Assembly: GCA_050084515.1 (NCBI GenBank)
Contig: CM114271.1
Coordinates: forward strand, 35,340,001 to 35,404,000
Length of the DNA: 64,000 bases
Source of the DNA: Blasia pusilla
Taxonomy: Eukaryota
Direction: 5' to 3'
Within the stretch, counting starts at the first letter, position 1, and every line of letters begins with the position of its first letter. Below are positions 10,468 through 37,539 of the stretch, one piece after another. Position numbers and translations under genes: made by a program. The notes under the pieces are model-generated. The model saw nothing but the letters and a program-made list of their open reading frames with translations. It did no database searches and was not told the origin of the DNA.

Positions 10468-10900
10468 TCTCACATCTTAGTTAGCCGACACGTGGAGTTC
10501 TATCATGTTGTCAGTGTAGAGGATTGGTATGTTGTTTGGAGATAATTCCATCCCAAGATGTCAGATGACATTTGAGACTGCTCTGTTGCGTCATGATTTT
10601 TCATTTAGAACTATTTCCTTTTTTTTCTTTTATGGGTCAGATGACCCATTAATCAAGTCAACACTCATCCAATAACTTGTGTGCATAGGTTATCATTGAG
10701 AGGGCTATTTTTGGGGGGAAGGGCTTTTTAAAAGCCTTTTTTCCTCTTTGTAAGGGTATGAAAGAGAAAGAAATGGATTTCTCAAATTATCTTTCTCATA
10801 TTGAGCCTTTGGAGCATCTCTCTTGCTTGAGTATCGTAGGATCTTGTGAACTAGTGTTGTACGTCTACTCCCTTGAACATCTGTCTAATGAAACTCAGAA
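10468..10900 (+). repeat. Old, degenerate copy of the E2 'A' terminal repeat
   Basis: Collinear similarity to 26468-26947: TCTCACATCTTAGTTAGCCGA, ..GTGCATAGGTTATCA..GGGCTATTTTTGGGGGGAAGGGC.., TATCTTTCTCATATTGAGCC.TTGGAGCATCTCTCTTG. Confidence 0.6.
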
Positions 10901-16330: not shown

Positions 16331-19039
16331 GAAGGGTACTACATTGGCACGAACATGACAAGCGACGGCAGATCCCTGGACTAACCAGGAAGTCTGTTCC
16401 AAGTCTTGAAGGACTTGCCATGTGTTGGGAGCTAGGAACTAAGGAAGGTTGAGCTTGATGAGACGCCGAGTTGAGGACTCGGTGGGTTGGAACGCCGGTT
16501 GGCCAAACCCGACTAATGAGTGTGTGTTTGGGTGCAGATCGGCGATGAGTTCGTGACCTACTGAACGCACGCTTCCGCAACACTAAAGATTGACGTTCAA
16601 GGAGAGTAGGGGCGCGATAGAAATGGACATGTCCACGGACATGCCGTGCAGGTATCCACGGCCGAGCGCATCCCTGAGCCTGTCGCCTAGACCCGGCCAT
16701 GTTGGCCAAGCCCACACTCGTTTTGTGGCCCACATGCAAACTACAGCCAGACCTGTAGGGTGGGCCTGACGATTGCGAGCCAGATGTACCCGGCTTCGGA
16801 CGAAGTTGTCTGTATAGATCAACACAGACATGTGTCCGTCCCTAAGAAGGACACGTACTTTGTAAGTAGGATGCAACCCTTCTTGCATCCTACTCTTGTG
16901 GGATGGGAGCTCTTCTCAAGTCCCGCTTGATGTTTAGTCTTGTATTGTTGAGTGATGGCCTTTATCATTTGAGAAGCCCATCAAGGCTTGCTTCTCACTT
17001 CTGCAACTCATGTCTCTTTTGAGAGACTCCAATACGCTTCCGTCCTGGTGTGAGCCTACTAGAGTTCTAATGTTCTGCGTTGGTGCGTGTTTGGTTATCT
17101 CGTGTCTTTTAGTATAGATCAACAAGTTTATGGTAGAGCATCTTTGACGATAGTGGTGGACAACCTAAAGAGGTCGAGGATGATGTCACGTCTTTTAGGA
17201 TAGATCGGTGAGATCTAGTAGAGCGCCTTCGTGAGTAGTGGATGACATGCCCAGTAGGTTGTGGATGACGTGTTGAGGCCCTGGGAAACCTGAGAGAGCA
17301 GGTTTAGGGTTCCCCTAAACGAAGCGGGAACCTGCTCTCTCAGGTTTCCCTTCGTTTCGGCTCATTTAGAGCCATATTGAGAAACTTACTATTTTAGGTA
17401 AGTACCATTTTGAGTATATGATCGACTTTCTTTTTTTGGTAAGTGGCTCTTGACCTCCTAAATCAGGTCAAGAGCCAAGGAGGTGACTTGGGAGAATAGG
17501 TTACCATGGAGAGAGGTTGGGAGAGGGGAGGGGTATACCTCAAGGAGAGAGAGTTTGAGAGCTCATTCTCTCTTTATTGAACCTGTTGGCATGAGGTGGC
17601 GGAGCTATGGTCCCTTGCCTTGTGAGTGTAACCCAATCCTCTCATTAGGAGAGTGGGCTTGGTTTGACATGAGAGAGAGAGTGCACACCTTTGAGAGCTA
17701 TGGTGTGAGATGGTGTAGAGAGAGATTGGATCTTACTTTACAAAGAGAGAATGAGAGAGTGAGAGAGCTTCATGGGGGAGCTTGCTGGTCACTCGCTGTA
17801 TTTGCAGGATGGGGACCGTGTTCCCCCTTCAACGGCTCATAGGAGTGCTCACCGAGCAAGGGCTGCTTTGATTGTTCTTTGCATTTTCTGATTTTTTGTG
17901 TGGAAGAGTGGCGTGCGGAAGCGCTGCCCAATTTCTGATAGGGATTGATTATGGGGGCGGGTTGCCCCATGCTAGTGCTCTCGGGAGCACCATGTAGCTT
18001 GCTGATTTTTTTTCTTACAGGTTTTACATTTTGGTTTGGAGAAATCAGCGCGGAAGCGCTCCCAAATTTTGTGTAGGAGAAAGAGACATTGGGCTTTACG
18101 ACAGTCCCCTTCAGTTTTTACTGGAATGTCCAATTCCAAATATTTTTTGACGCCGTCGTAGATCGTGAAGCTGTGCACGTTGTGCAACAAACGGTGCACA
18201 ATTTGGACTACGAGCAGAAAGTTATGGCCAATTTTGTAAATTTCCAATTTTAGGGTAAAAATCAAAACCCTAAAGCAGCAGCCGCCGTTGGCGGCGCTGT
18301 CACCGTCGCCGCCAGCCAGGCCATCAACCCGTCGGCCATGCCGTCAACCCTTCCCCAGGATGTCAACCCTTTGCCAAGCCCTTCAACCTGTCAACTGGCC
18401 CATTACCCGTCAAGCTGCCGTCAACCGACTGGAGTACTACTCTGGACGACGTGTGACCCAGTGATGTATGGGGTCCAAGTTTTCTAGCCGCATTTCTATG
18501 TTTTGAGTTGGTAGCCACTCCACAAAGATCGAGTACCGTGACGTGATGCCCGTAGCCGCAACGCGCCGCCAATTTCCGCGCTGTGCCGCTCGTGGCCGCA
18601 CCGCACTGTCTCGATCGCGGAGCCGCACCGTCATTGTGGAGCAGATTGTGTTTTGCTGGTTTGAGGAGTTTGTCTCCATGACCGAGTTGGGGTTGAGATT
18701 TTCAATTGCTGAGGAGCGACATCGACATGTGTTCAGGTTACCCATTGTGGTCCTTTATCCTGCATGCGTGAGGGATTTTGGGATTTGGGTAGTTTATTTG
18801 GGGATATTGGGTTTTGTGGATGCTAAGAGCATCATTTATGTATGTGGTTTAGGGGACATAGACCTATGTGGGATGTCTGGAGTTGAAGGTAGGTTGTCGA
18901 TGAGATGATAGCCTGGTCAATTTGCCGCACCACGCCGCTTGTTGCCGCACGTTACACGTCTCGGGGAGGGAGAGTTTCGAGGGTCTCCACGTGAGAGACC
19001 ACCTCGATCTCCTTCTGTGTCGTCTTCAGACAAGGGGGA

Positions 19040-21500
19040 GCGTGTAGAGGAGTGTGTTAGTGATCTACCGTACACATTGAGTGGTCCTACTAGTTGGGCA
19101 TACGAGATCGACGACCGGGGTAGGGGACCGCGTAGGTTTTCGGGTGCTGTAGGCACCATAGAGCTACACGACTTCATTGCGGAGTTTAGGAGTTGGTGTG
19201 ACTCACAGCGGGCTAGGAACTCTAGAGAGTTCAACCCGTTTCAGCATGGAACGGTATATTCCAACATTTAGAGGGGGCACCCATGGACGATTACCATGAG
19301 TTCTCCCACATATATGCCCAGGAGATTGAGGCATGGCGACTCTACTACGACCCACATTACGTGTCATGGACAGAGCCATTCCCAAATGAGGAGGAGGAGT
19401 AAGGAGAGGCTACTTCATCTTCCACTAGTGATGTGCTAGGAGGGGTGAGTCGGACTGGGGCAGTTGCATCGTCCAGTCGGGTTCGTCCTAGGTTCAACCC
19501 TGTGGTTGAGTTCTTTGCTAAGTTGAGGGTGAGCTACCATGGGGTAGGGACGGAGAAGTTGCGGAGCATCCACGACTTCCAGAGGCGCCTAGGTGAGAGT
19601 TTGCGTGAGGCTTACACTCGCTTCCGCCGGTTGATCAATGTCACTCAGGGGGTGACAGAGGCTCAGGCTATCCAGTCATGGTATGCTGGACCGGACCCTG
19701 CGGACACGGGTGCGGGAAGGGGTGCTTCTTATGAACACCTCCCCTACATTGAGAGATGTTTTTAGAACCGCCGAGAACATTGAGCGCAACATGGCGGATG
19801 AGAGCGTAGCCACCATGGGTTCTGGGCGAGACCAGTCGCGATTTTATGCACCATGTGAGCAGCAAGGTGGACTCCGAGATAGGTCGACTGTGGCACCACG
19901 AGCTCAGGGAGGATACCGGGAGGCCGTGCCAGAGAGACTTGCGCCTTCATATGCGACTCAGCAGCAGCCGCCTACTATTACTTGTTGGTCATGTGGTGGA
20001 GCCCATCATCAATGCGATTGCACTCGTCAGGGTCATGGACGTGTGCCTCAGCATGGAGGAAGAGATGGTGCTGCACTAGGAGGTTATCAGTGTGACTATT
20101 GTCAGAGGTATGGTCATACACGCGCCAGGTGTTTCAGTTTATATCCTGAGTTACGTCCGGACCGAGGGCCAGAGAGGGAACCAGAGGGAGTAGCTGGTCC
20201 GGGTGGGCTAGAGATCATGCTCCAAGTGGTCCCGTTGGGGGACGAGGAGCTGGAGTTGCCCGACACAATGGTGGAGCTGCCCATGGAGGAGGTAAAGTCC
20301 TACCACCTAGACGCGTCGAGGGAGATGTCGGGCGTGAGGCTAGGATGGCTGCTCAGATACATCAGCTACAGGACCAGATTGCCACTATGGCATTGAGATT
20401 ACCCGATGCCGGATCCGTGGCATCGACATCATATGGAGCAGCCAGAGATATGGAGGATCCTGGTTGGATGTGCGGGATTGCCCATATGGATGCAGCCGCA
20501 GTTGTGACGCGTGGAGCAACTGTAGAGTTGGATCCACGGGGGGAAGCCACGAAACAGACTAGGCTTCCTCAGTCTTTCACGTTTTCCGAGGCAATGAGGA
20601 CCCCATTGATGGGTCCTGATCAAAGTTCTGGAGAGTTGGTGATGTTGTTGGTGTGCAGGCACGGAGGGCGATGGGAGAAGCAAGTGCAACGACTCCTATT
20701 GTTGATGCTTAGGAGGGGCATTTGTTGAGCACGTTGTTGGGGGCCGCCACCATTGTGTACCGCGCTCCTTTATTTTCTGCTTCCTATGTTATGACGTTGG
20801 GGGGTCACCCGCCGAGGCTTTTCGGCTGGCCGCTACACTATGTGAGCGTGGAGTTGGAGTTCCTTCATCATGTTCAGAGGTGATTGCAGAGGAGGTGATG
20901 GACGTGCCCTTGAAGCGGATGCTCGGGCCGTCCACGTCAGATTCATGGCAGGCTGCGGCTACTAGGATGGCGGAGATGCCCGCTAGACCCGCGATAGAGC
21001 GTGCCATGGCTTCTCCTGGTGTTGTGTTCTTTGGATGGCGAGGAGAGGTCTTCGAGTTGGTGAGTCCCGGAGGTAGAGCTTTCAGTCCATAGCACGTCTT
21101 GTTGGATTCAGGAGCGCAACCCCTGATGTTGGGGAAAGCGTCATTTAGAGGATTGGGCTTGACGAGAGCCGATGTGGAGCGTTGTCCATTCTGGATGCAG
21201 ACATCCTTGGGTGGAGCAGTATATCACCCGACAGGAGGTCATGGTGAGGATTCGTCCAGGACATCCTACAGATGAGTCCGTGGTGCGAGCCAAGGCGATA
21301 GTGACTGATGCAGAGTCCTACGACGTCTTGGTTGGTGGAGTAGTGTTCTACCCGATGGATTTTTCCTGGATTACTGGGAAGAGTCAGCGTCCTATAGACC
21401 AAGATGGCAGTCATGTGATGGGCGCCTTAGCTCATTATCCGTTCGATTCACATGCGCACTGATCGAGCAATGGCCAGGAGAGATGGTGACCTTAGCAATA
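19040..21500 (+). pseudogene. E1 gag and protease, disrupted
   Basis: RRFSGAVGTIELHDFIAEF.SWCD, two zinc knuckles CWSCGGAHHQCDC and CDYCQRYGHTRARC, and protease VLLDSGAQPLM (~21096). Confidence 0.8.
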
Positions 21501-21806
21501 TTTAGCAATGCCATCACTTGGCCTAGTGATTTTATTGGGGTACATGTCCATGCACAGGATACTCCCGTTCCTCACATTTCTATGGAGAGGAGTGTCATGG
21601 TAGCCGTATCATTCCGTGGAGGAGAGGTGCCGTTGTAGGGCTTGATTGAGGAGGTTCGACGATTGGCAGATGAGCACGTGCAAACCGCGTGGAGCGAGGC
21701 GTTTGCACTAGAGCATGATGGGTCTGAGGAACCTGAGGTAGTAGGGAGTGCTACAATGACACCCTTGGATACCACACCCATTGTGTGGTGTATCCCAGAG
21801 GAGGGT

Positions 21807-23769
21807 ATTCGAGTGTTAGATCTCTTTGGAGGGATTAGCACCTAGTTAGCTGTTGTTTTGCAGGTAGGAGTGCAAGTATAGCTCGTATGAGGGTGAGTGC
21901 TTGGCTGCGGTGTGGGCTGTCGCGCATTTCAGATGTTACTTATTAGGCAATCCCTTTACCATCCTCATTGATCATCAACCACTGAAGTGGTTGATGGAGT
22001 CCGACAAGCTTACAGGGAAGCTTGCGAAATGGGCTCTGTTCTTGCAGGAGTATGATTTTCAGGTGGTACATAGACTTGGGATGCTCAACCAGGATGCATA
22101 TGGGTTGAGTCGTAACCCATGTTCGAGTCAGCGAGATGCAACTGGAGCTCGATGGCATGGAGAGAGTGATGAGGAGTTAGTGCCAGGATGGCACGCGTCA
22201 GCCTATTTAGGCATGTTGGCTATGGAGAGCCAGAGTGTGGAGACTTCGATGGCGAGGTCTAGTAGAGAGTCCTTGGATCCCGAGGCCAGTGAGGAGACGA
22301 CAGATGGCCGAGATATTCATGATGATGGAGTAGTGCGAGCGAGCACCGTGAGTGCTAGAGAGCGGGATCAGATCCTACAACGGGCCACACGATTCCGTTG
22401 GGAGGGGACACATGTTTTGAGGGTTTGGGAGGATGGCAGAGTACGCATAGTGCCGCATCCTTTGTAGAGAGCACGACTAGTGCAGCATGCCCATGAGGAG
22501 TTGGGTCACTTTGGGGTGAAGCGGACGTACAGCTTGCTCTAGATTCAGTATTGGTGGCGAGGCATATAGACTGACGTTCAGCAGTTTGTTGCTAGGTGCA
22601 TGGTGTGTGATCGGGTCCGAGCATCGTTCAATGCTCCGACTCCACAGTTGCATCCATTATTGATCATGGGCTTAGGGTATAGATGGATTTTGGATTTTGC
22701 AGGACCTTTGCCTTTGACGGAGCGTCACAGTCGTTATGTGTTGGTGATGATCGAGCACTTCTCGAAGTGGATCGAGTTGGTTGCATTGCCTAACAAAGCG
22801 AGTGAGGGAGTAGCTTATGCCTTCCTTGAGAGAGTGCTGAGTCATTATGGCGCATCGGTTGAGGTGTTGACAGTCCAGGGTACTGAGTTTTGCGGTGAGT
22901 TCCAGGCCTTGTGTGATCAGGCGTCGATCGACCATCGCACGACTTCGAGAGATCATCTCGAGGCGGATGGATTAGCGGAGAGAGTTATGTAGACGGTGAA
23001 GAGGGGTTTATGTAATTATGGCTTGCAGAGAGGTCACCTAGGAGATTGGGACCTACAGTTGCCCTGGTTGGCGATGGGATACAGATTCAGTAGGCAGACA
23101 TCCTTAGCATCTTTTTCACCGTACTTGCTACTTTATGGCCAAGAGCCAGATTTACCTACGGCCATTCATCGAGATGTTGGTGAGGTGCTGGACCATGATG
23201 ACCCAAATGTATGGATGCGAGCATGTTCTCAGAGGGCTGAGTTGTTTCAGAGATTGATGCCCATGGCGTTCGAGAACTTGGCGATTGCGCATCTATGAGA
23301 TACGTTGAGGTATGCGACTATTCGGGGTGGTGATTATCGACCAACTATCCGGAGGTTTCATCAGGGAGATTATGTCTACTTGTAGCAGACGGCACCGACG
23401 ACTTTGGATGTAAGAGCAGGGCGCACTATCCTGAGAGTGCGTGGCGTTTTGCCATCCGGTGTCCTCTTGCTGGAGGGACGCGATGGTATGGTATGGAAGG
23501 ACCATGTGCGTAATTATGCGCCATGTCACCTTCCTAACATTGATGGTACAGTAGATCCGAGCTTAGTAGTAGTTTCTGCAGGCTTGCATTGTATGTTGTG
23601 TGGTTCTGCCCATGGTGCGGCCACGATGCTAGTCTATGATGGATGTTCGAGAGGTTGGCATATGGCATGTCTGACGCCACCTCTCACTAGGATTCCCCAG
23701 GGACGATGGATGTCCCAAATGTACATAGAGGAGATACTAGGTAGGTTTCGATTCCGACTTTTTTTGTGA
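21807..23769 (+). pseudogene. E1 pol remnant: DNMT motif I joined by deletion to RNase H C-part, integrase and PHD finger
   Basis: IRVLDLFGGIST* is followed directly by YSSYEGECLAAVWAVAHFRCYL. IN: HEELGHFG..CMVC, LDFAGPLP, DGLAER. PHD: CMLC..YDGCSRGWHMACL.PPL...P.GRW. Confidence 0.85.
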
Positions 23770-26700
23770 CATGGATGACAGGAAGGCGACTAACGATGGG
23801 GCCACATGAGCACCCGACCTTCTTGCTCTTAGCGCCCCAGAGATGTATGTCATGGTAGGTAGGGATAGATGGCTATCTGGAGTTAGAGGGACCTAACCAC
23901 CAGCTAAGGGGGCGATTGGAGATATTTTAGCACTTCTTTTCTCGTTATTTGGATGTCATGAGTTAGCATGGGATCGTTTGTGTTTGTGTGTGTGTTCGGT
24001 GACAACAATGTATGTTGTGTAGCGATGTGTATGCGCACGACATCTATCACGTCTTATAGGATAGATCGGTGAGATCTAGTAGAGCGCCTTCATGAATAGT
24101 GGAAGACACGCCCAGTAGGTTGAGGATGACCTGCTGAGGCCCCGGGAAACCTGAGAGAGTAGGTTTCCCCTTCGTTTTGGCTCATTTGGAGCCACATTGA
24201 GAAACTTACTATTTGAGGTAAGTATCATTTTGAGTATATGATCGACTTTCTATTTTTGGTAAGTGGCCCTTGACCTCCTACATCAGGTCAAGAGCCAAGG
24301 AGGTGACTTGGGAGAATAGGTTATTATGGAGAGAGCTTGGGAGAGAGGAGGGGTATACCTCAAGGAGAGAGAGCTTGAGAGCTCATTCTCTCTTTGTTGA
24401 ACCTGTTGGCATGAGGCGGCGGAGTTATGGTCCCTTGCCTTGTGAATGTAACCCGAGCCTCTCATTAGGAGAGTGGGCTTGGTTTAACATGAGAGAGAAT
24501 GCACACCTTTGAGAGCTATGGTGTGAGATGGTGTAGAGAGAGATTGGATCTTACTTTAATTGGAGATATTTTAGTACTTCTGTGTCGTGTGTGTTTGTGT
24601 GTGTGTTTGGTGACAGCGATGTATGTTGTGTAGCGATGTGTATGCGCACGACAGTGATCTGCTAAGGCCTCGGGTAACCTAAGAAAGCATGACATCAATA
24701 TTTTTGCAACCCACCAAAATTCCCATTGAGAGCTTCACTTAGTTTCTCGACAGAAAATAAATTGGTTTGTTTTATGAGGTAGTGTTGTCATTGAGTTCAA
24801 TTTTTGCAATGGAAGCTCTCGATTGTTTCCAAAACATATTGACCTTTTCAAATCCATTTTGGAAATGTCTGAATTCAACCGGCCAACTCTATAAAGAAAC
24901 ATGATTATCTCCTATTTTTATCAACTTAAACAAAACATAACTTTATTATTAAGGAAAGATAGTTTTTGATTTGCAAACACCCATTTTTTTGACACATGGA
25001 AATGGGGCAGCAAGAATATGTTTAAATATCACATGGAATAAGAAATGAATTTTTGGATAGTATGATTATTAGTTTTGTGCAAAGCATCTATAGGAGTGTC
25101 AAGTGAGACACTATGATAAAAAAAAAAAAGAGGGGGTTTAGGGTTTAGCGCATGGGGGCTGCTCGACTTGCCCACGGAACATGCGATAGGTTGGATCTTT
25201 AAGACTCAACCCTAAGACTTCTATGTGCAAGACTCGAGATTGGGATCTATTCTCGGGTAAGTGAGAAAGAGTAGAGTTTGAACTCTACAACGTAGTAGTA
25301 TAGATGGAAATTTACAATTGAAAAATGAGATTAGAAATTGCATCTATTAAAAAATCCTCCTTAACTACGAAATATTGAACAATCATGGAGGACACTTCAT
25401 TCCCATATATGATGTATATGTTTAGGCGATGGATTTACCCTATCCAACAGCCATCAGAAACCAATTATGTTTCAAGTAAGCTCTAGCCCCAAACTTTCCA
25501 ATCCTATTTTTTACTTCATTTTTGGAATTCTCCCTCTTCATGGTTGCACAAAAATGGACAAGTAAGTCCTTGGGATAGACACGAACAGACAAATTTGGAC
25601 ATGTCCACGAATATGGATTGCAAGAGGTGGGGTCCACATTTATATCTTATGATGGAAGGTAGGCCAAAGGCGAGTGGGGTAATAAGGGGGGGAGGGAGTG
25701 GAGGTGGAGGAAGGAAGAAGCGGGAAAGTATGGAACATGAAGGAAAATGGAGGGAATGAGAAAGAAGGGGAAGATGGGATCGACATGGACAAGTCCTTCT
25801 ATAGCACGAACGTAAATCTACGGATACGGATATGTCTGCGCACCCGGACTTTGTCCATATTCAATCTTGTCCCTCTTTGACTACTTGACATAATTTCACA
25901 AAACTCAACCATTTGGTACATCTCAAACTTGGGACTTCATTTAAATATTTAGTTGGGATCACATGAATGTTTCAAATTATCCATTTTGTAGATAGGTAGA
26001 TAGTTTGTTTCTTTGTTTCTTTCTTTGTTTATGTAAAAGTCATATTTTTAGATTTTATTTTTACTTTCACTATTCATTTTTCTTGATGATAAATCTTTCA
26101 TTTTCATAACATATCCATACATACCATGTAAAAATTTTCAACCGAAATGGTCATGGTGGTAGTAGGCTACTAGGCTTTCATATTTCACAAAGGAGAATTA
26201 GATTTATAGCCATTAGAATTCAAGATAAACTTTTTTGGTTCTCTTTCAACTACAAAGTGATCATGAATCTTTAGATATGTCCCAAATTTGGATGGATGAT
26301 AATGACTTGTCCGTTTTTGTGCAACCATGCACATGGCATGACCATACAATTTTCAAGAACTTGGAATGATTATGGTCATGATAGTATTAGGAATATCATA
26401 CTTCATAAATTAGAGATAGACTTGACATTTAATTTCGAGGAAAAGACCATTTTTTGGACTTTCAAGATGTCACATCTGAGTAGCCGATAGGCCGAGATCT
26501 ATCGTGGATAGGGCGTAGGAGCCAGCGGACTATCTTGAGTGTAACTTTGTCCCACGGTGTCGGATGAGGTTGAGGATAGGTCCATTGTGTCAGGAACGTC
26601 GTTTCTGACAACTTTCATGTTGAGGTCTTTTACATCCGGGTGACTTGTTGACCAGGTCACCCGCCCTTGGTAACCTGTGAGCGTAGGTTACCAAGGGAAG

Positions 26701-27914
26701 GGCTATTTTTAGGGGAAGAGCCTTTTGGCTCTTCCCAACCCTATATAAGAGAGGAAGATGGCTTTCCTAAGCCATCTTTCTCATGTTGGGCCGTTGGAGC
26801 ACCTCCCTTGTATGTGTGTGAGCTAGGACTAGGGTGCTAGCGTCCGGATTCCTTGATAGCACAGGGTGGACGAGGCTCGATATGGCGATGTAGATAGAGG
26901 AGTGGAGTTTTAGGCCGAGTGTGCCGTTTTTACTACTCTTTATTTTTACATGAGAAAGATGTCAGGGGGTTGGTGGGAATTCGTTGTTTGCAGGTAGGCA
27001 AGCAAGTTGCCTTGGTCGGGAGCCCCTGGAGACGTGTGTGTGACGTTTTGTGTGTCATTTTCTGTTCGGAAGGCCGTGGGCGGAAGCGCTGTCCGTTTTT
27101 CTCAGATTTTGTTGGTGCGATTGATGGGGGACAGCAGCAGGGTGTAGCGCAGGTTGTGTCGGCAGGAGTAACGTCGTCTTATAACTCGTGGAATGTCGGG
27201 AGTACCCAAGGAGAAGAGTTAGAGCTTGCAGCCGCCAGGGAGCTGTCAAGTAAAGCGGCTGGTCTAGGGTTTAGCCGGGGCGGCGACAGGCGGCGCGGCG
27301 GGAAACAAAGCGGTGACGGCGCCCCCTCCTCCCCTTCCCCCATTTATTTCCCTCCCCAAAAGTTGGGGAGGCCCATAGGGGTGTGGGCCAGGGCGTTGCG
27401 AGAGTTGACGATGGTGGGGCAGTGTGCATGATGCCGACGGGTGGTCCGCATCTGTTGACGGGAGGATCGACGTGTTGGTCGAGGGGAGTGTTGTGTTGCG
27501 GAGATTGTCATCTACGCAACATGTGTTGTGTTGCGGAGGTTGCCGAGCAGGGGTCGCGTGTATGACCCGAGAGAGTGTCGCTAGGTTGAGCGTGCGTGAG
27601 GCCGGGTATGTCATCACGGGATTGATGTTAGCATAGGTGAGCTAGTGAGGCATGTGGGAGACTCTCGGTGAGTGTGAGTGCTTGAGCGGGTGAGACAGGG
27701 TTTGTCATCACGGCGTTCTTCAGGGTTGAAGAATGGGGTAGTCGAGTAGTGGTAGTGGTGTGACACGGGTGGAGTGAGATACTGAGGGGTTACTAGTGAG
27801 GAGCTCCTCGACATCCATCCGTGATTGGATTGTCATCGACACCGGAGTGCAGTGACGAGATCACGACAAAACGATAGTACTTGGCAGGAGATGGACGACA
27901 TGGGCCATTGAGGC

Positions 27915-30260
27915 ATGCGGCGTTTCTCGGGTGCAGTGGGCACCATCGACTTAGATGATTTCATCCAGGAGTTCAACACATGGTGCGACTTCCAGGAGAT
28001 ACGGACCCCGACACGGTTCAACCCTTTCATGGCATGGAAGGGTTGTTCCAAAGACTTGGAGGGTCCCAGATGGATGACTACATGGAGTTTCGATCACTAT
28101 ATTCAGTAGAGATTGATGCTTGGAGGATGTATTGGGCTCTAGGGTATGTGTCCACTAGTGGTCGCGAGGCATATGATGGGATTGTGAGAGGAGAGAGACC
28201 CACACCATCAGCCCGGAGACTAGATGGAGAGGAGGGCAGTGAGACAGGCAATGTGGCAGAGACCTCTGGTGGTAGAGGGCCACCTAGCTTCAGCCCCATG
28301 TTGGAGTTCTTCCGACAGTTGGAGAAGAGCTACCGGGCGTGCATTGAAACACAAGCTGAAGAGTCTACATGATTTTCAGCGGACGATCGGGGAGAGTCGA
28401 GAGAGGCATTCACACGCATGAGGAGGCTGATCATTGCTACGTTTGGAGTGATTGAGACGCAGTCAGTCCAGTATTGGTACGGGATTATGGACCGAGAACT
28501 ACAGAGGAGAGTCCAAGATGCGATGATGATTCACACAGTGAAGCCCACATTGAAGGTGGTCTTTGAGTTGTCTGAGCGTATTGAGCTCAACATGAGTGAG
28601 GAGCAGGTAGTGACCGCTGGATTTTTCGAGAGTCGACGGGTCCACGGCGACCGTGACCCCACAGTGCCCAAAGCAAGCACCGATACCACCATGGGAGCGG
28701 GCGGTGTGCCTAGAGAGCGGGCGGTACCGTGAGCCTATGAGGCAACGACCCGCACCTACATATGTTGCCCAGCACGGACCGATGTGGTCTTGTTGGATGT
28801 GTGGAGGGACCCATAGGCAGAGAGACTGCCCACAGCATGGGAGAGGACCACCATCGCCTCCAATTGCTCAGGAGCCACAGAGGATGGCCCCACCACAGCA
28901 CCACTGTGACCATTGCCACAGATATGGTCACACTAGGGATAGATGTTTTGACCTTCGTCGAGGGGCACGCCCAAAGGTAGGCCGAGGGCCTGGGGCGGCC
29001 GCCCCTGGAGGAGGTTGGGGAGTTCTTCTGGACATGGTGGTAGAGGACCACCACCAGCCGAGGAGGAGATAGAGCAGAGCACCGAGTCGGCACTTCTCTC
29101 ACGCATCGATCGGTTGAGCGGAGGATTGCTGCCATGACGATGATGCGGCTTAGGAAGGCACGGAGTGTGAGCGGCTAGTGTGACTCGATCTCTACCTCTT
29201 ACCCTAACCCGGGTGAGATCTCTCAAAGTATGGGATTTATGTGTAGTGCAGCCAGGTTGAGGCGGTATAGTGGTGACTCGGGGTCTTTGCGAGAGGCATC
29301 AAGCCATCGAGAGGTGGAGTTGAGATTGACCCACCAGAGGGGACCGATGGGCGGCGAGCCAGGGTTCCACGATCGTTCACATTGTCGGAGGCACTACACA
29401 CACCATCGATGGTGCCTCGGCGACCAGCGGTGCCTCGATTGGGCACCTCGTCGGCGTCACGAGGAGTTGGAGTGACAACTCCTATCTTTGGCTCGAGTGG
29501 AGTCGGTGTCGACCATAGTGTTGGAGGTGGCCACCGAGTGAGTCGACTCCGCTATTTTCCGCCATAGAGTTGGCGGCGTTGGGAATTGGACCAAGCGAGG
29601 TGTTTGGTTGGCCGCCACGTTGTGTGGCGTGGAGAGATGGCGCTTCTTGTTTAGAGGTAGTTGAGGAGGTGGTGGACTTGCCCTCAGAGCGGTGCTTGGG
29701 GCGTTCCCACGAGTCATGGCATCTGGCGGCGGAAAAGTTGGTAGATATGCTAGCTCGACCGGCCATAGAGCGGCAAGTGGTGACACTGGAGTAGTATTCT
29801 TTGGATAACCGAGCTAGAGTATTTCGCTTGGTTAGTCCGACGGGGATAGTATACCACCCGCAGCGCGTCCTACTTGATTTGGGAGCGCAACCCTTGATGT
29901 TAGGGAAGGCGGCATGCTTAGTGTTGGGGTTACGGAAGGCCGACATTGAGCCTTGTCCCTTCCAGATACAGACCTCGATTGGGGGCGTATCACCCACTCA
30001 ATATATGACTCGATAGGAGATTGTTGTCAGAATCCAGCCAGAGCATGCGACGGATAGTGTTATGGTGCGCACACATGCGATTACGACACCATCTGAGTCG
30101 TACGATGTGTTGGTGGGGAGTACCGTGTTATATCCCCTAGGATTCATCCTTGACTTCTGGGAGGAGACCGTTGCCTATCAGCTGGGATGGCGGTCAAGTG
30201 ACAGCCGGATGAGTCAGTTACCCGTGCAGTTTGCGAGATGAGGTGGTCGATCACGAGGCG
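27915..30260 (+). pseudogene. E2 gag and protease, disrupted
   Basis: RRFSGAVGTIDLDDFIQEFNTWCD, knuckles CWMCGGTHRQRDC and CDHCHRYGHTRDRC, and protease VLLDLGAQPLM. Homologous to E1. Confidence 0.8.
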
Positions 30261-30613
30261 AGTCTGTGACCACGTTGGCAGCTTTCACACGTAGTGTTAG
30301 CTGGCCAGGAGAGTTGTTGGAGGGGAACGCACATGCGGAGGATGTCCCAGTAGCGGAGGATGTCCCAGTAGCGGATAGTCCCACGGAGAGACAGGCCATG
30401 GCGGGTGTCTCTTCCCATGTTGGCGAGGCCTCTTCACCATTGTGGGGTACGACTCGGGAGCTACAGAGGAGTGTCGAAGACCTCGTGAGGCAAGCGTGGA
30501 GTCATGTTTTTATCCCAAAGCCGCGAGAGTCATGTGGCGATCGGGCTCTTGGAGTGGAGAGGATGACCCCACTAGATACCACACCTGTTGTGTGGCAGTG
30601 CCCAGAGGAGGGT

Positions 30614-31560
30614 GTTAGGGTGTTAGATCTCTTCGGAGGGATTAGCACCGGATTGGCTGCACTATTGCAGGCGGGCATACGGGTGCATCAGTACCTTTAT
30701 GTGGAGAGAGATGAGACCGCGCGGCGAGTATCATTACATCACATGGCGAGATTGGTCCAGAGGTATACTGAGTTGTTGTCGGTATCTGCAGTACGGGGAT
30801 ACCAGCATAGGCTACCCGCCGACATCTCTTTGGTGGGGGCGCAGGATCTGGATAGAGTTGGCACCATTCATTTGGTGATTGCTCGATGGCCATGTCAGGG
30901 TCATTCATCAGCTGGCTGAGGATTTGGATTGCAGGATCCGAGGTCAGGGATGTTTTGGGAGATGATGCGAGTAGTACGACACTTGCACGAGAGTCAGATA
31001 TTTTCTCCAACATACATTTTGGAGAACGTGCCATTGTTGGGAGACACTCGTGCACGTGTGATGACCAGTGTACATCAGGTGAGGTCCTGGTTGGGACCTG
31101 CTGTGCTGTTAGATGCAGCGAGAGTTGGGTCACGTGCCCATCGTCCACGACTGTGGTGGACAAACTTGATACCATCAGAAGTACTAAGTCGAGCATACAA
31201 TGGAGTCCAGAGAGCACCACATCTTACAGTGTATGCTATTTTGGGCTCAGGGCGTCGATCTCACGTGGTGACACGGGATGATAGACCACCGTTGGCCATG
31301 GCCAATAGGGTGGGGGAATTGAGGGCAGCCTTACCTACGTTGGTGAGCTTCCCAGCATCCCATGCCTTTTGTCAGGGAGGGCCAGGCATGATTTGGGATG
31401 AGGTGTCCGGAGCATTGGAGGAGCCTACAGCACATGAGCGTGAGCGCGCCATGGGGTTCACTACCGGTACTACGGCGGTGCCAGGGATGACTGAGGCATC
31501 ACGGAGACAAGTGTTGGGGCAGGCGATGGACCTCAACTGTCTCACATGGATAGTCAGCCT
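30614..31560 (+). pseudogene. C5 cytosine DNA methyltransferase domain (DNMT3-like) within retroelement pol, one in-frame TGA
   Basis: Motif I VLDLFGGI, II YVE, IV WPCQGHS, VI ILENV, VIII AHRPRLWWTN, IX ERERAMGF, X LGQAM. ORFs 30266-30919 and 30929-31822 are in the same frame, separated by TGA at 30917-30919. Confidence 0.9.
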
Positions 31561-31864
31561 AGGTATGGTGAGCGAGAGACGGATACGAGTGTCATCCATG
31601 CCGTCACGCCCACGAAGTTGGACCATTGCCTATGAGGTATGTCTGAGGCATTGGTGGGGCGAGACGAGGAGAGATAGGCACCCATGGACTTCCTGGGACG
31701 TCGTTCGAGCAGAGAGTGCGAAGGCGGCTAGAGTAGCACATGTTCATTTTTCGGATGTGGAGCATGGTGTAGGAGGTCACAGTGGAGTGGTTGTTGCAGA
31801 GGTGGCTAGGGTTGCTACATAGCAACCAAAGCCAAAGGTTGCGTCCTCTCCGAGTGAGGTCACG

Positions 31865-34800
31865 ATGGAGACTTGGGAGCCTGTGATAGGTCTCAAGTTG
31901 ATAGGAGGAGAGCGACGGCAAGTTCATAGGTTTCTGAGAGGGCATGTCAGTTGTTTTGCCTTCAGTATGAGAGACTTGGGTACGCTGAAGGGTCCCGGGA
32001 TACGGATTGAGTTGGCTAGTGATACGTCGATCTTTTGTCGACCCTCAGTATTCGATATGGAGCGAGCCTTGATTGAGCGAGGAGTCGAGGACTTGTTGGA
32101 GGCAGGACTTGTGGAGTTATCACATGGGGAGTATGCATCTGCCACAATCATGCCGGCGAAGAAGGATATGTATGGCAATTGGACAGATAGGCGGATGTGT
32201 GGAGATTACCGTCCTATCAACCGACAGACGAGGTCAGATCGGTATGCCATGCCTACTCCTGAGGAGATCTTTGATGCGGTAGGGCATGCAAAGATCTTGA
32301 TAGATTTTTAGATCTCCGTGTTGGCTATCATCGACTTCCTATCAAGGTTGGAGGACAGGGAGAAGACGAGCATTTTGGGGATAGATCCGTTCGGGAGAGA
32401 TTGCTTGTATTAGTGCGGTTCTTACCATTTGGGTTGAAGAACGCGCTGCAGAGTTTCAGAGAGTGATGGATAGGATTAGGTGGCTTGGATTTTGTACAAT
32501 GTTACATAGATGATATTCTTATCTTGATTCCACGGTTGAGGAGCATGAGCGACACTTGGAGGAGGTGTTTGGCGATTGCGATTACATGGACTGAAGTTAC
32601 ATCCAGCAAGTGCAGATTCTTTTCAGGAGCAGATTGAGTACTTGGGACACACCATATACCCGAGTGGGTTAGGCGTTCAACAGGCGAAGGTAGAGGCTAT
32701 TGCAGATTCCACGCCCTAGAGATGTGAGTCGAGTCCGAGCATTTCTTGGACCGGCAAACTTCTATCGACGGTATGTCAAGGGTTTTAGTGTGTGATCGCA
32801 AAGTCTTTGACCTTGTCGCGAGACTTGATCAGGTTTGGTTGTGGGGAGATGATCGGGAGCGAGCATTTCAGAGCTCAGGACAGGTTGGCGTCCTCACCCA
32901 TTTTCTGAGAGACCGGTTAGGGTCGCCCATTCGATTACATACAGTTGGAGCATGTTGGGTCTAGGAGCAGTGCTTACTCAGAGGGATAACGAGGAGAGGG
33001 AGTTCGTTGTGGCTTACGCGAGCCGATTGAACAACATTGAGAGGCGAAGTACAGCTCCTACGAGGGAGAGTGCTTGGTTGCAGTGTGGGTCGTGGCACAT
33101 TTTAGGTGCTATTTATTCGGCAACCCTTTCACACTTATCACTGATCATCAGCCGTTGAGGTGGTTGATGGAGTCCGACAAGCTTACGGGAAAGCTTGCCA
33201 GGTGGGCTCTATTACTACAGGAGTATGAATTTGAGGTGGTTAATAGGCCAGGTTGGCTGAACCAAGATGCGGATGGGTTGAGTCGTAACCCATGTCCAAG
33301 TCAGAGAGACGACACAAGAGCTCGATGGCACGGAGAGAGTGATGAGGAGATGGTGCCCGGTTGGCATGCATCTGCCTATCTTTGTTGGTTGACTATGGCA
33401 GGTCAGCCACAGGTGATGACTCCAGTGGTGGGGTTGGATGATGAGTCTTTAGATCCGGAGGTTAGTGAGGAGGCGACAGGTGGTCGTGATATCCATGACG
33501 ACGTGGAGGTTGTGGAGTTCTTGCGCACTGGCGTCATTGCGAGTACAATGAGTGCTAGGGAGCGGGATCGGATCCTACAGAGAGCCAAGAGGTTCAGGTG
33601 GGAGGGGACTCACATTTTGCGGGTATGGGGAGATGGTAGGATACGAGTGGTACCTCATCCTTCCCAGCGAGCATGTGTAGTGCGACATGCCCATGAGGAG
33701 TTGGGACATTTTGGAGTAAAGCGTACTTACAGCTTACTCTAGGTTCAGTATTGGTGGCACGGCATGCATACTAGGGTACAGTAGTTTGTGGCCACATGTA
33801 TGGTATGTGACAGAGTGTGAGCATCCTTCAATGCTCCCACTCCGTAGTTACATCCTTTGCCGATTATGGGTTTAGGTTATCGGTGGAGTTTAGACTTTGC
33901 GGGACCTTTGCCATTGACAAGGCGTCATCATAGGTACGTGTTGGTCATGGTGGAACATTTCTCCAAGTGGATAGAGTTGGTGGCACTACCGAGACAAAGC
34001 GCGAGCGAGGCGGCTTATGCGTTTCTAGATCGTGTGCTTAGTCACTTTGGTGCACCGGCGGAGGTGTTGACTGACCAGGGTACCGAGTTCAGGGGAGAGT
34101 TTCAAGCCTTGTGTGATCATGGGCTCCACGTCCAGAGATCATCCTCAGGCGGATGGGTTGGCGGAGAGAGTGGTACATATGGTGAAGAGAGGATTGCGCA
34201 AGTATGGCTTGCAGCGGGGACAGTTGAGGGAGTGGGACCTACAATTGCCATGGTTGGCTATGGGTTATCGCTTTAGTCGGCAGGCATCCTTGGCGTCATT
34301 TTCACCGTACTTTTTTCTCTTTGGGAGAGAGCCAGATTGCAGCCATTCGACGTGACATGGCGGAGGTGTTAGATCTTGATGATCCATATGTGTGGGTCCA
34401 AGCATGTTCTCAGAGGGCAGAAGTTTTTCGTAGAGTTATGCCTATGGCCTTTGAGAACTTAGCTATTGCCCAGCATAGAGATACATTGAGGTATGCGACC
34501 ATTCGTGGAGGAGGTTATCGTCCAGGGATTAGGAGGTTTTATCCTGGAGATTACGTGTATTTACAGCAAGCGGCACCCACGATGCTAGATGTCACTGCAG
34601 GGCGCACAATCCTACATGTGCGCGAGGTATTACCGACCGGAGTCCTCATGTTGGAGGGACGGGATGGTATGGTTTGGAAGGATCATGTGTGCAATTGTGC
34701 GCCATGTCATCTTCCGAACGTAGATGGGACGGTGGATTCGAGCTTGGCAGTGGTACCTGCAGGCTTGAGGTGTATGTTGTCCGGATCTGCGAGGGGTGCA

Positions 34801-34911
34801 ACCACCATGTTGGTATGTGATGGTTGTTCTCGAGGGTGGCATATGTCATGTCTGATCCCTCCTCTTGATGTGGTTCCCACGGGACGATGGATGTGTCCGA
34901 GATGTGTATAG
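31865..34911 (+). pseudogene. E2 RT-RNase H-integrase-PHD, disrupted
   Basis: RRMCGDYRPIN, LPFGLKN, CYIDDIL (RT). VVAYASR, WVVAHFRCYL, TDHQPL (RH). HEELGHFG..CMVC, LDFAGPLP, TDQGTEF, HPQADGLAER (DDE IN). PHD CML..CDGCSRGWHMSCL.PPL..VP.GRWMCPRC at 34771-34908. Confidence 0.9.
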
Positions 34912-37539
34912 GATAGTAGGTCATGTCAGAGAGATGTGATATTTTCTATCTGGAGTTGGGGGATCAAGCGCCAACTAGGGGCGGTTGTGTGATCTCCATG
35001 TATATGCATGAGTTGATTTTTGTACATGTGTGGATCGACCCGTGTCTGGGGAAGATCGATGTTGTGTGGTGTAGATTTGACGAGCGATGTATGTTGTGTA
35101 GCGATATGTTTGCGCACGACAGCTGTCACATCTGAGTAGCCGATAGGCCGAGATCTATCGTGGATAGGGCGTAGGAGCCAGCGGACTATCTTGAGTGTAA
35201 CTTTGTCCCACGGTGTCGGATGAGGTTGAGGATAGTCCATTGTGTCAGGAACGTCGTTTCTGACGACTTTCATGTTGAGGTCTTTTACAGCCGGGTGACT
35301 TGTTGACCAAGTCACCCGCCCTTGGTAACATGTGAGCGTAGGTTACCAAGGGAAGGGTTATTTTTAGGGGAAGAGCCTTTTGGCTCTTCCCAACCCTATA
35401 TAAGAGAGGAAGATGGCTTTCCTAAGCCATCTTTCTCATGTTGGGCCGTTGGAGCACCTCCCTTGTATGTGTGTGAGCTAGGACTAGGGTGCTAGCGTCC
35501 GGATTCCTTGATAGCACAGGGTGAACGAGGCTCGATATGCCGATGTAGATTGAGGAGTTTAGTTTTAGGCCGGGTGTGCCATTTTTACTACTCTTTATTT
35601 TTGTTGTGTGATCTCCATGTATATATATGAGTTGATTTTTGTACATGTGTGGATCGACTCGTGTGTGGGGGAAGATCGGTGTTGTGTGGTGTAGATGTGA
35701 CGAGCGATGTATGTTGTGTAGCGATATGTATGCGCACGACAAAGAGCAAAGTGAAATAAACCCATTGAATGAGTCACGAACTTGGGAGGTTTGTTACAAG
35801 GGTCATTTTCAACACTCTAGATTCTTCACCTTTGGTTTCGATATTAATATAATGATACAAATATTTTAATTGCATTTTCACATCTCATTTTTCCCTTAAG
35901 AAAAACCCAACACATTCATGGCATGCCCCTACGTCCCCTCTATTACTCACACCAAATTTTTCAATTGTAATGAGAGGAATTTTAAAGTTCACAAAAGGGA
36001 GCGAGACTATTGACATTTTACTTTGAATTTAGAATTTTTAATTGTCTTGGGCATCTTTATATAATTGTGAGGAGATTCTCCACTTTCAATTTCAACATAA
36101 ATGACTTATATCTTGAAATTTGAGGTAAATTTTCCATAGTTATTTGGTTCCGTTTTCACAACTCATTTCTCTCAAAAAATGAACTATGAGGTCCCATGCC
36201 TTGCTTATATAGAACTTTCAGTATTTTGGTAATCCTAATGGCCATTATGAGTTATTGTCATATTATCAATACACATCAAAATCAATGATGGGATTTATCC
36301 TGAATTTGTGATACAAAAGTGATATTCCTACAAATGAAAAATTGGACATCTTCCAGAATAGTGATAGAAAGGTCAGGTTAATCGCCCTATCATGAATGAG
36401 GTGGTGTATTACAAATGTCGAGTTATAGCCCACGCTATGCACAGGTGAAAGATATCAATGTTACGACTTTAACATCTGTTAAACACTACACTTGTCAACA
36501 CTAGAGGAAGCAAAAATAGATCCATGTCAACACTAGAAGAAGGGGTCTTCAAACCACATCCTTTTTTGATTATATAAATTCCTAAGCCCGTAAGTCACTC
36601 GTTCACTCCGTTATGGAGACGACTGAAAGCTCGAATTCTGTGATATCTATTCCACTTTGGACATCACTGAAAACTTGAACCTTTGCCATCCAGTGACTTC
36701 TTGTTCTCCCCTCCCTTTGTGCATGCCAGGTACAAATTCTTCTTGTGCGGTATTAGAGTTCTTCTCTGGAATCTCTGTAAAGCTAGTAATCACACGCCCA
36801 AATGGAGTATCCACATCTGCAAAGGTGGGAATGGAGAATAGAGAGAACTAATCTCCAGGATGTACCAACCTGATAGGCAAGAATTATTGAATGAACCCAC
36901 GAAAGAAGTACCTAAAATTTGCAATGGTGGCAAGTGAAGACTGCTCTCTCGATGATATCAAGGTGCAACGAGAACTATTGAGTTCATCGATTGAGTATTG
37001 GGTATCCAGAGTCCACATTGGTATGAAGGGAGAATCACTGATTGCATAAGCAAGACAGATAACTACAGATAACTTTCCAGCAACAATCTCTGGTAGGAAT
37101 CATCCTCTGGTTTCTGATATAGAAGACATTCAACAAATGGATTTGATCTGCTGTGGAGATCAAATGTGGAATCCATTTGGAAAGGAAGAACATACAAACA
37201 ACATACTCTGTGCGAGGGGAAGCTCGCAACTCAAGCTCAGTACTAGCTGGGAAACCGAATGGATGACTGAAGTGCATGAGATCGGGCAACACGGGTAGCA
37301 TGATAAAGTGCGTGTTAACAGCTCACTTCATTCCCAAGAGTACTTCAGGGTCCATTCAATTCCTTATCTAGCCTTGGTGATAAAGCCAGGTAAGCATTAT
37401 CTAAGGATCTAGACCTAGTGACATGTTGCAAACATTTCAGTGGATATGTTTGACTGATGAGAAGCTTTCCCCACTGAAGAGAAGACTGAACTCTTGTTCT
37501 ATCCTTCAACTTTGCACTGATAGTTTTGAAGAGTAGTGT

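Follow-up and report, generated by a model that had tools for sequence, protein, structure and literature searches.

Two retrotransposon copies with split terminal repeats

The window analysed here is a stretch of 64,000 nucleotides (nt) from the genome of Blasia pusilla (NCBI GenBank assembly GCA_050084515.1, contig CM114271.1, positions 35,340,001 to 35,404,000 of the forward strand), and it contains two decayed retrotransposon copies, E1 (17184-24653) and E2 (26468-35741; coordinates are those of the window). Comparison of positions 16000-37000 with themselves returned these two elements, each with two pairs of direct repeats, and in both the repeats follow the order A1-internal-B1-nn-A2-B2, where nn is a spacer of 2 nt (Table 1). 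An earlier reading of the sequence alone (the original prediction) had proposed this order together with the outer coordinates, and self-comparison and direct reading bear out both, with A1 of E2 starting at 26468. As had also been proposed, the elements have TG...CA ends and carry 4-bp target-site duplications (TSDs) at the start of A1 and the end of B2, the outer ends reading ATGA/TGTCAC...CACGACA/GTGA in E1 and AAGA/TGTCAC...CACGACA/AAGA in E2; both features recur in the relatives described below.

A1 and A2 are 86% identical in E1, with an indel, and 97% identical in E2, while B1 and B2 are 94% identical in each element. Between the two elements the A repeats gave no BLAST match, in agreement with the expectation that they share little, and over their last ~44 nt the B repeats agree at 91-95%. 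A 36-nt B-end pattern matches exactly the four B ends in the window (24007-24042, 24618-24653, 35086-35121 and 35706-35741), with 0 matches expected (100 shuffles). The junction between B1 and A2 reads CACGACA-tc-TATCAC in E1 and CACGACA-gc-TGTCAC in E2. At the A2-B2 junction of E2 (35602/35603), the end of A, as set by a primer-binding site (PBS), meets the start of B, as set by a polypurine tract (PPT).

Table 1 Positions of repeats, putative priming sites and decayed coding regions of E1 and E2 in the window
Element	Feature	Position	Strand	Remarks
E1	Left TSD ATGA	17180..17183	+	right copy GTGA, 3/4 match
E1	Repeat A1	17184..17740	+	starts TGTCAC; holds TATA-like GGTATACC
E1	Predicted self-primer CTCATTCTCTCTTT	17562-17575	+	inside A1
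E1	Putative PBS AAAGAGAGAATGAG	17742..17755	+	complementary to 17562-17575; 0/300 and 0/500 shuffles equal it
E1	Decayed coding region	19104..23712	+	gag 19104-20665, protease region 20757-21851, RNase H 21868-22422, integrase core 22630-23034, PHD 23590-23712
E1	PPT AAGGGGGCG	23906..23914	+	directly before B1
E1	Repeat B1	23915..24042	+	CACGACA end
E1	2-nt spacer tc	24043..24044	+	internal CA-nn-TA junction
E1	Repeat A2	24045..24558	+	TATCAC start
E1	Repeat B2	24559..24653	+	shorter than B1; CACGACA end, then GTGA
E2	Left TSD AAGA	26464..26467	+	
E2	Repeat A1	26468..26947	+	TGTCAC start; TATATAA at 26742-26748
E2	Predicted transcript start and self-primer CATCTTTCTCATGT	26773-26786	+	in A1
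E2	Putative PBS ACATGAGAAAGATG	26948..26961	+	adjoins A1; complementary to 26773-26786
E2	Decayed gag-pol	27912..34905	+	gag 27912-28955, protease region 29546-30600, C5 DNA methyltransferase 30614-31711, reverse transcriptase 31832-32704, RNase H 33041-33484, integrase zinc domain and core 33650-34220, PHD 34783-34905
E2	PPT AGGGGCG	34977..34983	+	directly before B1
E2	Repeat B1	34984..35121	+	CACGACA end
E2	2-nt spacer gc	35122..35123	+	internal CA-nn-TG junction, putative attachment (att) site
E2	Repeat A2	35124..35602	+	
E2	Repeat B2	35603..35741	+	
E2	Right TSD AAGA	35742..35745	+	

Predicted coding content

Neither copy holds an open reading frame (ORF) longer than 300 amino acids (aa), and the gag-pol region of E2 has many stops and frameshifts. 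Aligned by tblastn, E2 encodes in order gag, a protease region, a C5 DNA methyltransferase (DNMT), reverse transcriptase (RT), RNase H, integrase and a PHD finger; E1 has the same order minus DNMT and RT, which are missing because of a 2.4-kb deletion between 21864 and 21874 (corresponding to 30671-33047 of E2). Pfam profiles recognized RT_RNaseH, the integrase zinc domain (Integrase_H2C2), the rve core and the C-terminal PHD finger in E2, and RT_RNaseH, rve and PHD in E1. The H-H-C-C residues and the aspartates of the DF.GP and TDQG motifs are kept in the E2 integrase, which is interrupted by three in-frame stops and a frameshift. Although E1 is a deletion derivative, its repeats are complete in layout and a TSD flanks it, so that either mobilisation in trans or a later deletion is probable.

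The E2 ORF at 30920-31822 corresponds to the DNMT. It shares 44-67% identity with PF00145-bearing relatives from Sphagnum and from the liverworts Calypogeia and Marchantia, and in several of these RT and RNase H form part of the same protein. The relatives that were aligned retain the PCQ and ENV motifs, and the DNMT sits between protease and RT in E2 and the relatives alike. Scanning metagenome contigs with the DNMT alignment yielded 80 loci, apparently moss DNA, whereas the same scan of viral contigs found no relative. One near-intact relative, L040, has a 1369-aa ORF and a 1047-aa ORF separated by a single stop, with Pfam matches to Asp protease, DNA_methylase, RVT_1, RNase H, H2C2, rve and PHD; its other ORFs had no Pfam match. 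The L040 integrase aligns to the integrases of Ty3 (7q5b) and foamy virus (PFV; 3l2q), with D, D and E in the DF.GP, TDQG and AER columns, the acidic columns being assigned by PFV residue numbering. No Phage_integrase match was obtained in the ORFs of E1, E2 or L040, and no phage-integrase domain appears in the precomputed Pfam lists of 33 + 42 (75) listed relatives. We conclude that, as judged from domains and conserved residues, the enzyme is an HHCC/DDE integrase and not a tyrosine recombinase, which is what the original prediction had stated.

By their pol order (protease-RT-RNase H-integrase), HHCC and DDE residues, short TSD and PPT at the start of B1, the elements are decayed Ty3/gypsy retrotransposons. 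They depart from the usual form in that two identical complete TG...CA long terminal repeats (LTRs) are not found at the ends: the 5' end is A, the 3' end is B, and the full unit B-nn-A is present once, internally. Split repeats are a feature of the DIRS order, from which the elements differ by the lack of a tyrosine recombinase and by TSDs at the insertion.

Two further features of the coding region were observed. In L040, the single in-frame stop (5083-5085) lies between gag-protease-DNMT and RT-RNase H-integrase-PHD, and it may serve for read-through and not be a sign of decay. The PHD finger ends the integrase in E1 and E2 (Table 1) and in L040 (residues 990-1034 of ORF2). In chromoviruses this position is held by a chromodomain. 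The PHD finger suggests that insertion might be guided by chromatin through a different histone reader; no paper on a PHD finger ending such an integrase was among those listed in our literature search.

The repeat layout recurs in independent insertions

To locate the boundaries of the metagenome loci, the A and B repeats from four families served as BLAST queries, and each boundary was then read. Loci with common flanks were merged as one insertion (L045 with L046, L047 with L050, L055 with L058, L057 with L059), and L014 and L015, whose A copies are 5'-truncated, were excluded from the counts. All 22 independent 5' ends (20 from metagenomes, E1 and E2) start with TGTCA(T/C)G after unrelated flank, and B-nn stands ahead of A1 in 0/22. 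On the 3' side, 13 ends (11 from metagenomes, E1 and E2) have the form B1-nn-A2(-B2) (L002, with B2 beyond the locus; L011, L012, L024, L045, L050, L053, L055, L057; L064, with B2 cut to 29 nt; L065), in keeping with the prediction that A-int-B-A-B (int, internal region) would be the recurrent form. At nine further loci (L006, L013, L025, L027, L031, L035, L049, L069 and L072) the flank follows directly after B, giving A-int-B; these contigs are short-read assemblies that may collapse B1 on B2, so that this count is soft. Of the two by-products that had been predicted, A-int-B may be represented by these nine loci, whereas A-B-A-int-B is absent from all 22 5' ends.

Among the 12 elements with both ends readable, seven have perfect (4/4) TSDs (E2 AAGA, L045 CATA, L050 AAGG, L053 GGTC, L064 CCAC, L065 CCAA, L006 TACA), four match at 3/4 positions (E1, L024, L025, L035) and one, L055, has none. 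The internal junction is always CA + 2 nt + T(G/A), and the A2-B2 joint is exact in 12/12 readable rows, which represent 10 independent insertions (L045 = L046, L057 = L059). The layout with exact junctions is present in 13 independent insertions from four families and in different assemblies. We conclude that A-int-B-nn-A(-B) is a trait of the lineage.

A2 starts with TA in 4/14 independent elements (E1 at 24045, L024, L045/L046 and L053), while A1 starts with TG in 22/22. We considered this as a mechanistic clue and rejected it: the spacer usually ends in C, which places the bottom-strand C in CAG (CHG), deamination may explain the change equally well, and at c-preceded sites only the difference (4/12 vs 0/4) is not significant.

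With respect to the B ends, the last ~36-44 nt (GATGTATGTTGT...CGCACGACA) are near-identical in the two families of the window and in moss family M1 (L024, L045, L050), despite the DNMT proteins of those families being only ~55% identical; this conserved end is much longer than integrase end sites usually are. The B ends differ in moss family M2 and in L040. The final 15 nt of B2 (CTACACGTCACGACA) are duplicated in tandem in L065 (14593-14622), and the TSD CCAA follows the second copy. An extra hairpin-forming inverted duplication of ~43 nt in A1 of E1 (17283-17350) is missing in A2.

Putative self-primer, polypurine tract and limits of the LTR

Immediately downstream of A1 lie 12-16 nt whose reverse complement is found within A, ~30 nt below a TATA-like box. 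Besides the pairs in E1 and E2 (Table 1), such self-primer/PBS pairs are TAGTTCTTTGAG/CTCAAAGAACTA in M1, AGTTTTTCTAGA/TCTAGAAAAACT in M2 and GACATTCTTGTCAAGT/ACTTGACAAGAATGTC in L040, and each of the five perfect pairings tested was equalled by 0/300 shuffles. Across 22 elements, complementarity is 12/12 in seven, 11/12 in nine and lower in six, three of which have a disrupted leader. The minimum-energy fold from the start to the PBS closes with the primer stem in 6/6 sequences folded, the ends of which were chosen to allow it. The pairing covaries across six element types, including E1, E2, M1, M2 and L040. Because the sequences differ while their pairing and its position are retained, this sequence-level covariation indicates self-priming of the Tf1 type, and the primer site at which A1 had been predicted to end would be the PBS of this pair. 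A tRNA-type PBS was rejected: no TGG-type site adjoins A1, and the TGG stretches 20-25 nt downstream differ between families. In M1 (for example L045 and L018), the PBS-complementary TTCTTTGAG occurs twice in A (positions ~168 and ~254), once 31 nt below the TATA box and once 85 nt before the A end, and therefore the PBS has two possible partners in this family.

A G-run PPT lies directly before B1 in 23/24 loci, the exception being L025, which has an internal deletion; the PPT-like AGGGG(G)CG of the original prediction is AAGGGGGCG in E1 and AGGGGCG in E2. A second G-run (CAGGGGG, CATGGGGG and CCGTGGGGG) was observed 15-40 nt past the PBS in E1 (17793-17799), E2 (26964-26970) and M1 leaders, for which a second plus-strand primer and a packaging signal are possibilities.

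In textbook retroviral reverse transcription, the limits of the LTR follow from the minus- and plus-strand primer sites. Because the PBS adjoins the end of A and the PPT adjoins the start of B, we infer from this established scheme that the LTR is B-nn-A and that the cDNA is [B-nn-A]-internal-[B-nn-A]; the earlier proposal of a B-nn-A LTR is thus supported by the self-primer/PBS pair and the G-run PPT. The same two positions exclude an LTR made of A+B with the PBS after B and the PPT before A. The tips of such a cDNA are not conserved and are not TG...CA: B starts with GTTGTG, ATTGGA or ATACAT, and A ends with TTATTTTT, TACTTTA, TTTTCA or TTCAAT. Conservation is instead seen inside the LTR, where the half-sites TGTCAYG and CACGACA stand back to back.

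Support from sequencing reads

The region 34400-35900 was compared with sequencing data of two kinds: assembled contigs from two DNA runs, each of a different study, and the raw reads from two RNA runs. The A-B junction is present in short-read contigs of both studies (record 16 of X3 spans 35548-35655), and contigs of X1 and X3 hold joints from A-end variants back to 34984, the start of B. Together with the independent metagenome contigs, these contigs show that B2 is not an assembly artefact, a possibility that the original prediction had raised as a ground for refutation. Loose ends before 35124, the start of A, are diverse (25 + 19 contigs, agreement 0.41-0.42), as are those behind 35741, the end of B (23 contigs); these diverse ends are genomic flanks. 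Behind 35602, the end of A, 18 contigs share one continuation, the leader found after A1, and no diverse flank was found at the start of B or the end of A among the rows listed, beyond which come 491 more. The family is very abundant, with word depths of thousands to hundreds of thousands, which are not a copy number.

Over B1, A2, B2 and the integrase region the RNA reads are in sense orientation. A large number of those from E1-like relatives cross the end of B, 2 nt and the start of A, adding at and ac to the spacers seen, and such sense reads are expected if B-nn-A is the U3 (unique 3') part of the LTR. The E2-like RNA reads (284 + 369, mostly 90-95% alike) are too few to place the transcript start or poly(A) site; the only places at which RNA begins or ends, 35235 and 35402, lie at an indel and at the TATA box.

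A proposed replication cycle and its alternatives

In our best explanation, which as a whole is in our judgement equally apt to prove right or wrong, E1 and E2 are inactive members of a self-priming Ty3/gypsy lineage that extends across the bryophytes, and the lineage would follow a full cycle in which a self-primed gypsy element joins its cDNA tips and a DDE integrase opens the internal CA-nn-TG. In this cycle, transcription would start in A ~30 nt below the TATA box. By analogy with Tf1, and as suggested by the covariation, the first 12-16 nt of the RNA would fold onto the site after A1 and prime the minus strand, and from its position the G-run tract adjoining B1 would start the plus strand. 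The finished cDNA would be [B-nn-A]-internal-[B-nn-A], the tips of which would not be integrase sites, the TGTCAYG/CACGACA half-sites being 2 nt apart inside each LTR. For the A-int-B-nn-A-B layout to arise, the end of A must first be joined to the start of B; this joining would be exact and would occur most simply in a circle with two LTRs (2-LTR circle). The DDE integrase would then cut after both CAs at the junction in the PBS-proximal LTR, opening only one of the two junctions and leaving recessed CA-3'OH ends with 2-nt 5' overhangs. Ends of this kind are the normal product of integrase end-processing. The loss of the spacer nn at every TSD is consistent with cuts after both CAs, and insertion with a 4-bp stagger would give the A-internal-B-nn-A-B elements with TSDs that are seen as the end product. 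The more general proposition, that the lineage replicates obligatorily through a tandem-LTR DNA with joined tips which a DDE integrase opens at the CA-nn-TG palindrome inside the LTR, is put forward tentatively, as we believe it somewhat more apt to fail than to hold.

Several observations weigh against this cycle. In a free 2-LTR circle the CA-nn-TG site is present twice in identical form, so that A-B-nn-A-int-B insertions are expected as well, yet they account for 0/22 independent 5' ends as opposed to 13 3' ends of the A-int-B-nn-A(-B) form. This polarity contradicts the simplest form of the circle, and some step is polar; the simple opening of a 2-LTR circle in the original prediction therefore does not stand as proposed, and the circle itself stays a matter of inference. 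The A-B joint is exact in every readable case, tidier than is known for end-joined retroviral circles, which suggests a precise or templated joining step that the circle model does not specify. The DNA covered is chromosomal, and a circle or joined tip outside chromosomes is a predicted form. The nine A-int-B loci fit 1-LTR circles, deletion between B1 and B2, internal processing of linear cDNA and assembler collapse alike; we accordingly rejected them as proof of 1-LTR-circle integration, since assembler collapse and B1-B2 deletion give the same product. Sense RNA reads continue over A2-B2 into B2, which leaves termination inside A2 as a prediction, and E1 has one unpaired C between the end of A1 and the PBS duplex.

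Both the polarity and the exact joint would be accounted for without a closed circle if RT, in plus-strand synthesis, switched at the end of A onto the start of B of a cDNA, generating a linear [B-nn-A]-int-[B-nn-A]-[B...]. The integrase would take the outermost TG and CA half-sites and trim the arms, and plain linear cDNA would give A-int-B, so that the three classes (13 A-int-B-nn-A-B, nine A-int-B and no A-B-A-int-B) would follow. RTs switch end to end, and the Tf1 integrase trims primer-derived extra nucleotides beyond CA; here, however, the arms to be trimmed would be 116-480 nt long, and we know of no integrase end-processing on such a scale. Moreover, a mirror-image switch on the minus strand would restore symmetry, so that some further source of asymmetry would have to be supposed; assembly collapse may account for the A-int-B contigs, and the evidence comes from chromosomal copies and RNA reads. 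We consider this template switch unlikely. Replication of the DIRS/PAT type with another integrase is more improbable still, in our view clearly so: an RNA running from A1 into B2 would be bridged by B1-nn-A2 into a circle, which would be opened at the new B2-nn-A1 joint. Such a scheme fits the layout, which is the A1-B1-A2-B2 order described for PAT, Ngaro and VIPER (PMC4157794), as well as the RNA reads that enter B2, and a newly made, perhaps nicked joint could account for the opening of one junction only. It gives no reason why the end of A coincides with a self-primer PBS and the start of B with a G-run PPT in every family, the tyrosine recombinase is missing, TSDs are present, and the RNA evidence is weak in that reads of B1 and B2 are indistinguishable at 90% likeness.

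Least probable of all, to the point that we give it hardly any credence, is a secondary origin of the layout by rearrangement of ordinary LTR elements after insertion, by mis-assembly or by a tyrosine recombinase acting in trans. The copies in the window are indeed dead, their reading frames broken by many stops and frameshifts; chimeric joins at repeats can arise in metagenome contigs, and the assembly of L040 is a cycle that passes through A. Against this stand the exact junctions in the independent insertions of all four families and different assemblies, the TSDs that bracket the start of A1 and the end of B2, the joints in short-read contigs of two studies and the lack of a recombinase domain in the precomputed Pfam domains of the 75 listed relatives; tyrosine-recombinase elements, furthermore, make no TSD. 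On the basis of the independent insertions, the TSDs and the two-study contigs, we excluded an assembly artefact and a trans-acting recombinase.

Comparison with known systems

The original prediction had known of no description of split repeats combined with a DDE integrase; de Mendoza et al. (2018; PMC5890265), however, already state it for KnitGypsy-Dnmt3 of Klebsormidium nitens. According to the legend of their Fig. 4c, this element has a gypsy pol with a Dnmt3-type DNMT, and its repeats are DIRS-type while its domains are typical of Gypsy. As described there, it is like the window elements in having a C5 DNMT inside a gypsy pol and A-coding-B-A-B repeats; it differs in being algal, whereas the window elements are bryophytic, and the likeness is one of published description. 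No Klebsormidium protein was among the named matches of the DNMT and relative searches. The main-text passages on the element (PMC5890265) deal with neither termini, TSDs, PBS, PPT, a PHD finger nor a mechanism. A 2026 preprint (bioRxiv 10.64898/2026.05.21.726589) cites 'streptophytes (Gypsy-DNMT3)' as known. In our literature search, KnitGypsy appeared in no paper besides PMC5890265, which alone notes the layout in a DDE-integrase element, and no paper explained it. The same article describes SymbioDIRS-Dnmt3 of Symbiodinium, in which A-coding-B-A-B repeats likewise accompany a C5 DNMT in pol; this is a DIRS element with a tyrosine recombinase and, by the authors' RT tree, unrelated. We conclude that the window elements are new bryophyte members of a known, barely studied kind.

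PAT, TOC1, Ngaro and VIPER share the split direct repeats A1-B1-A2-B2 with the window elements. They have a tyrosine recombinase and no TSD, in contrast to the HHCC/DDE integrase, 4-bp TSDs, TG...CA ends, PPT and predicted self-primer PBS found here. The Tf1/sushi group, including Tcn1, also lacks a tRNA-type PBS and has a transcript 5' end that complements the site after the repeat; its members have ordinary LTRs and a chromodomain, whereas the window elements have permuted repeats and a PHD finger in its place. For plant Tcn1 elements in mosses, self-priming has been predicted (Neumann et al. 2019, PMC6317226). Finally, cleavage of a palindromic 2-LTR junction by integrase has been described for PFV and HIV-1 (PMC1180852, PMC1905944, PMC4372172), where, as reported, a retroviral-type integrase cuts an internal CA...TG palindrome to yield integration-competent ends. 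The retroviral palindrome arises where the two cDNA tips are ligated, and its use is a minor route, whereas in the cycle proposed here the palindrome would lie inside each LTR, the A-B ligation joint would be elsewhere and the route would be obligatory.

Other gypsy-like remnants in the window

Outside E1 and E2, a degenerate piece at 10673-10825 resembles the TATA/self-primer part of the E2 A repeat (68% over 153 nt); no B end lies nearby, and it is probably an old remnant. Just upstream of E1, positions 14461-16099 (+ strand) hold a fragment of a different gypsy-type RT/RNase H, in which an ORF (14996-16099, 367 aa) has about 30-33% identity to the relatives used.

Implications

What the analysis adds is that the layout occurs across families of liverwort and moss type, that the elements have TSDs, a predicted self-primer and a PHD finger, and that the 2-LTR circle meets a polarity problem. 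Programs commonly used to find LTRs would take A...A for them and miss the true ends, the TSDs and TG...CA, with the consequence that an abundant bryophyte family would be mis-dated or dropped. From the covarying self-primer, the start of the transcript can be predicted exactly (26773 in E2). The two-tandem-LTR circle as an integration precursor is an idea that was abandoned for retroviruses; if the obligatory route proposed above is true, the lineage would be a natural, fixed version of it. The split-repeat layout of DIRS, PAT and Ngaro would then follow the position of the att site relative to the primer sites and not the type of recombinase, and split direct repeats would have arisen independently of tyrosine recombinases. 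If the integrase works on the internal site of joined LTRs, these elements would provide a natural system for a reaction known only as a side route of PFV and HIV, in hosts, the bryophytes, that can be grown and transformed.

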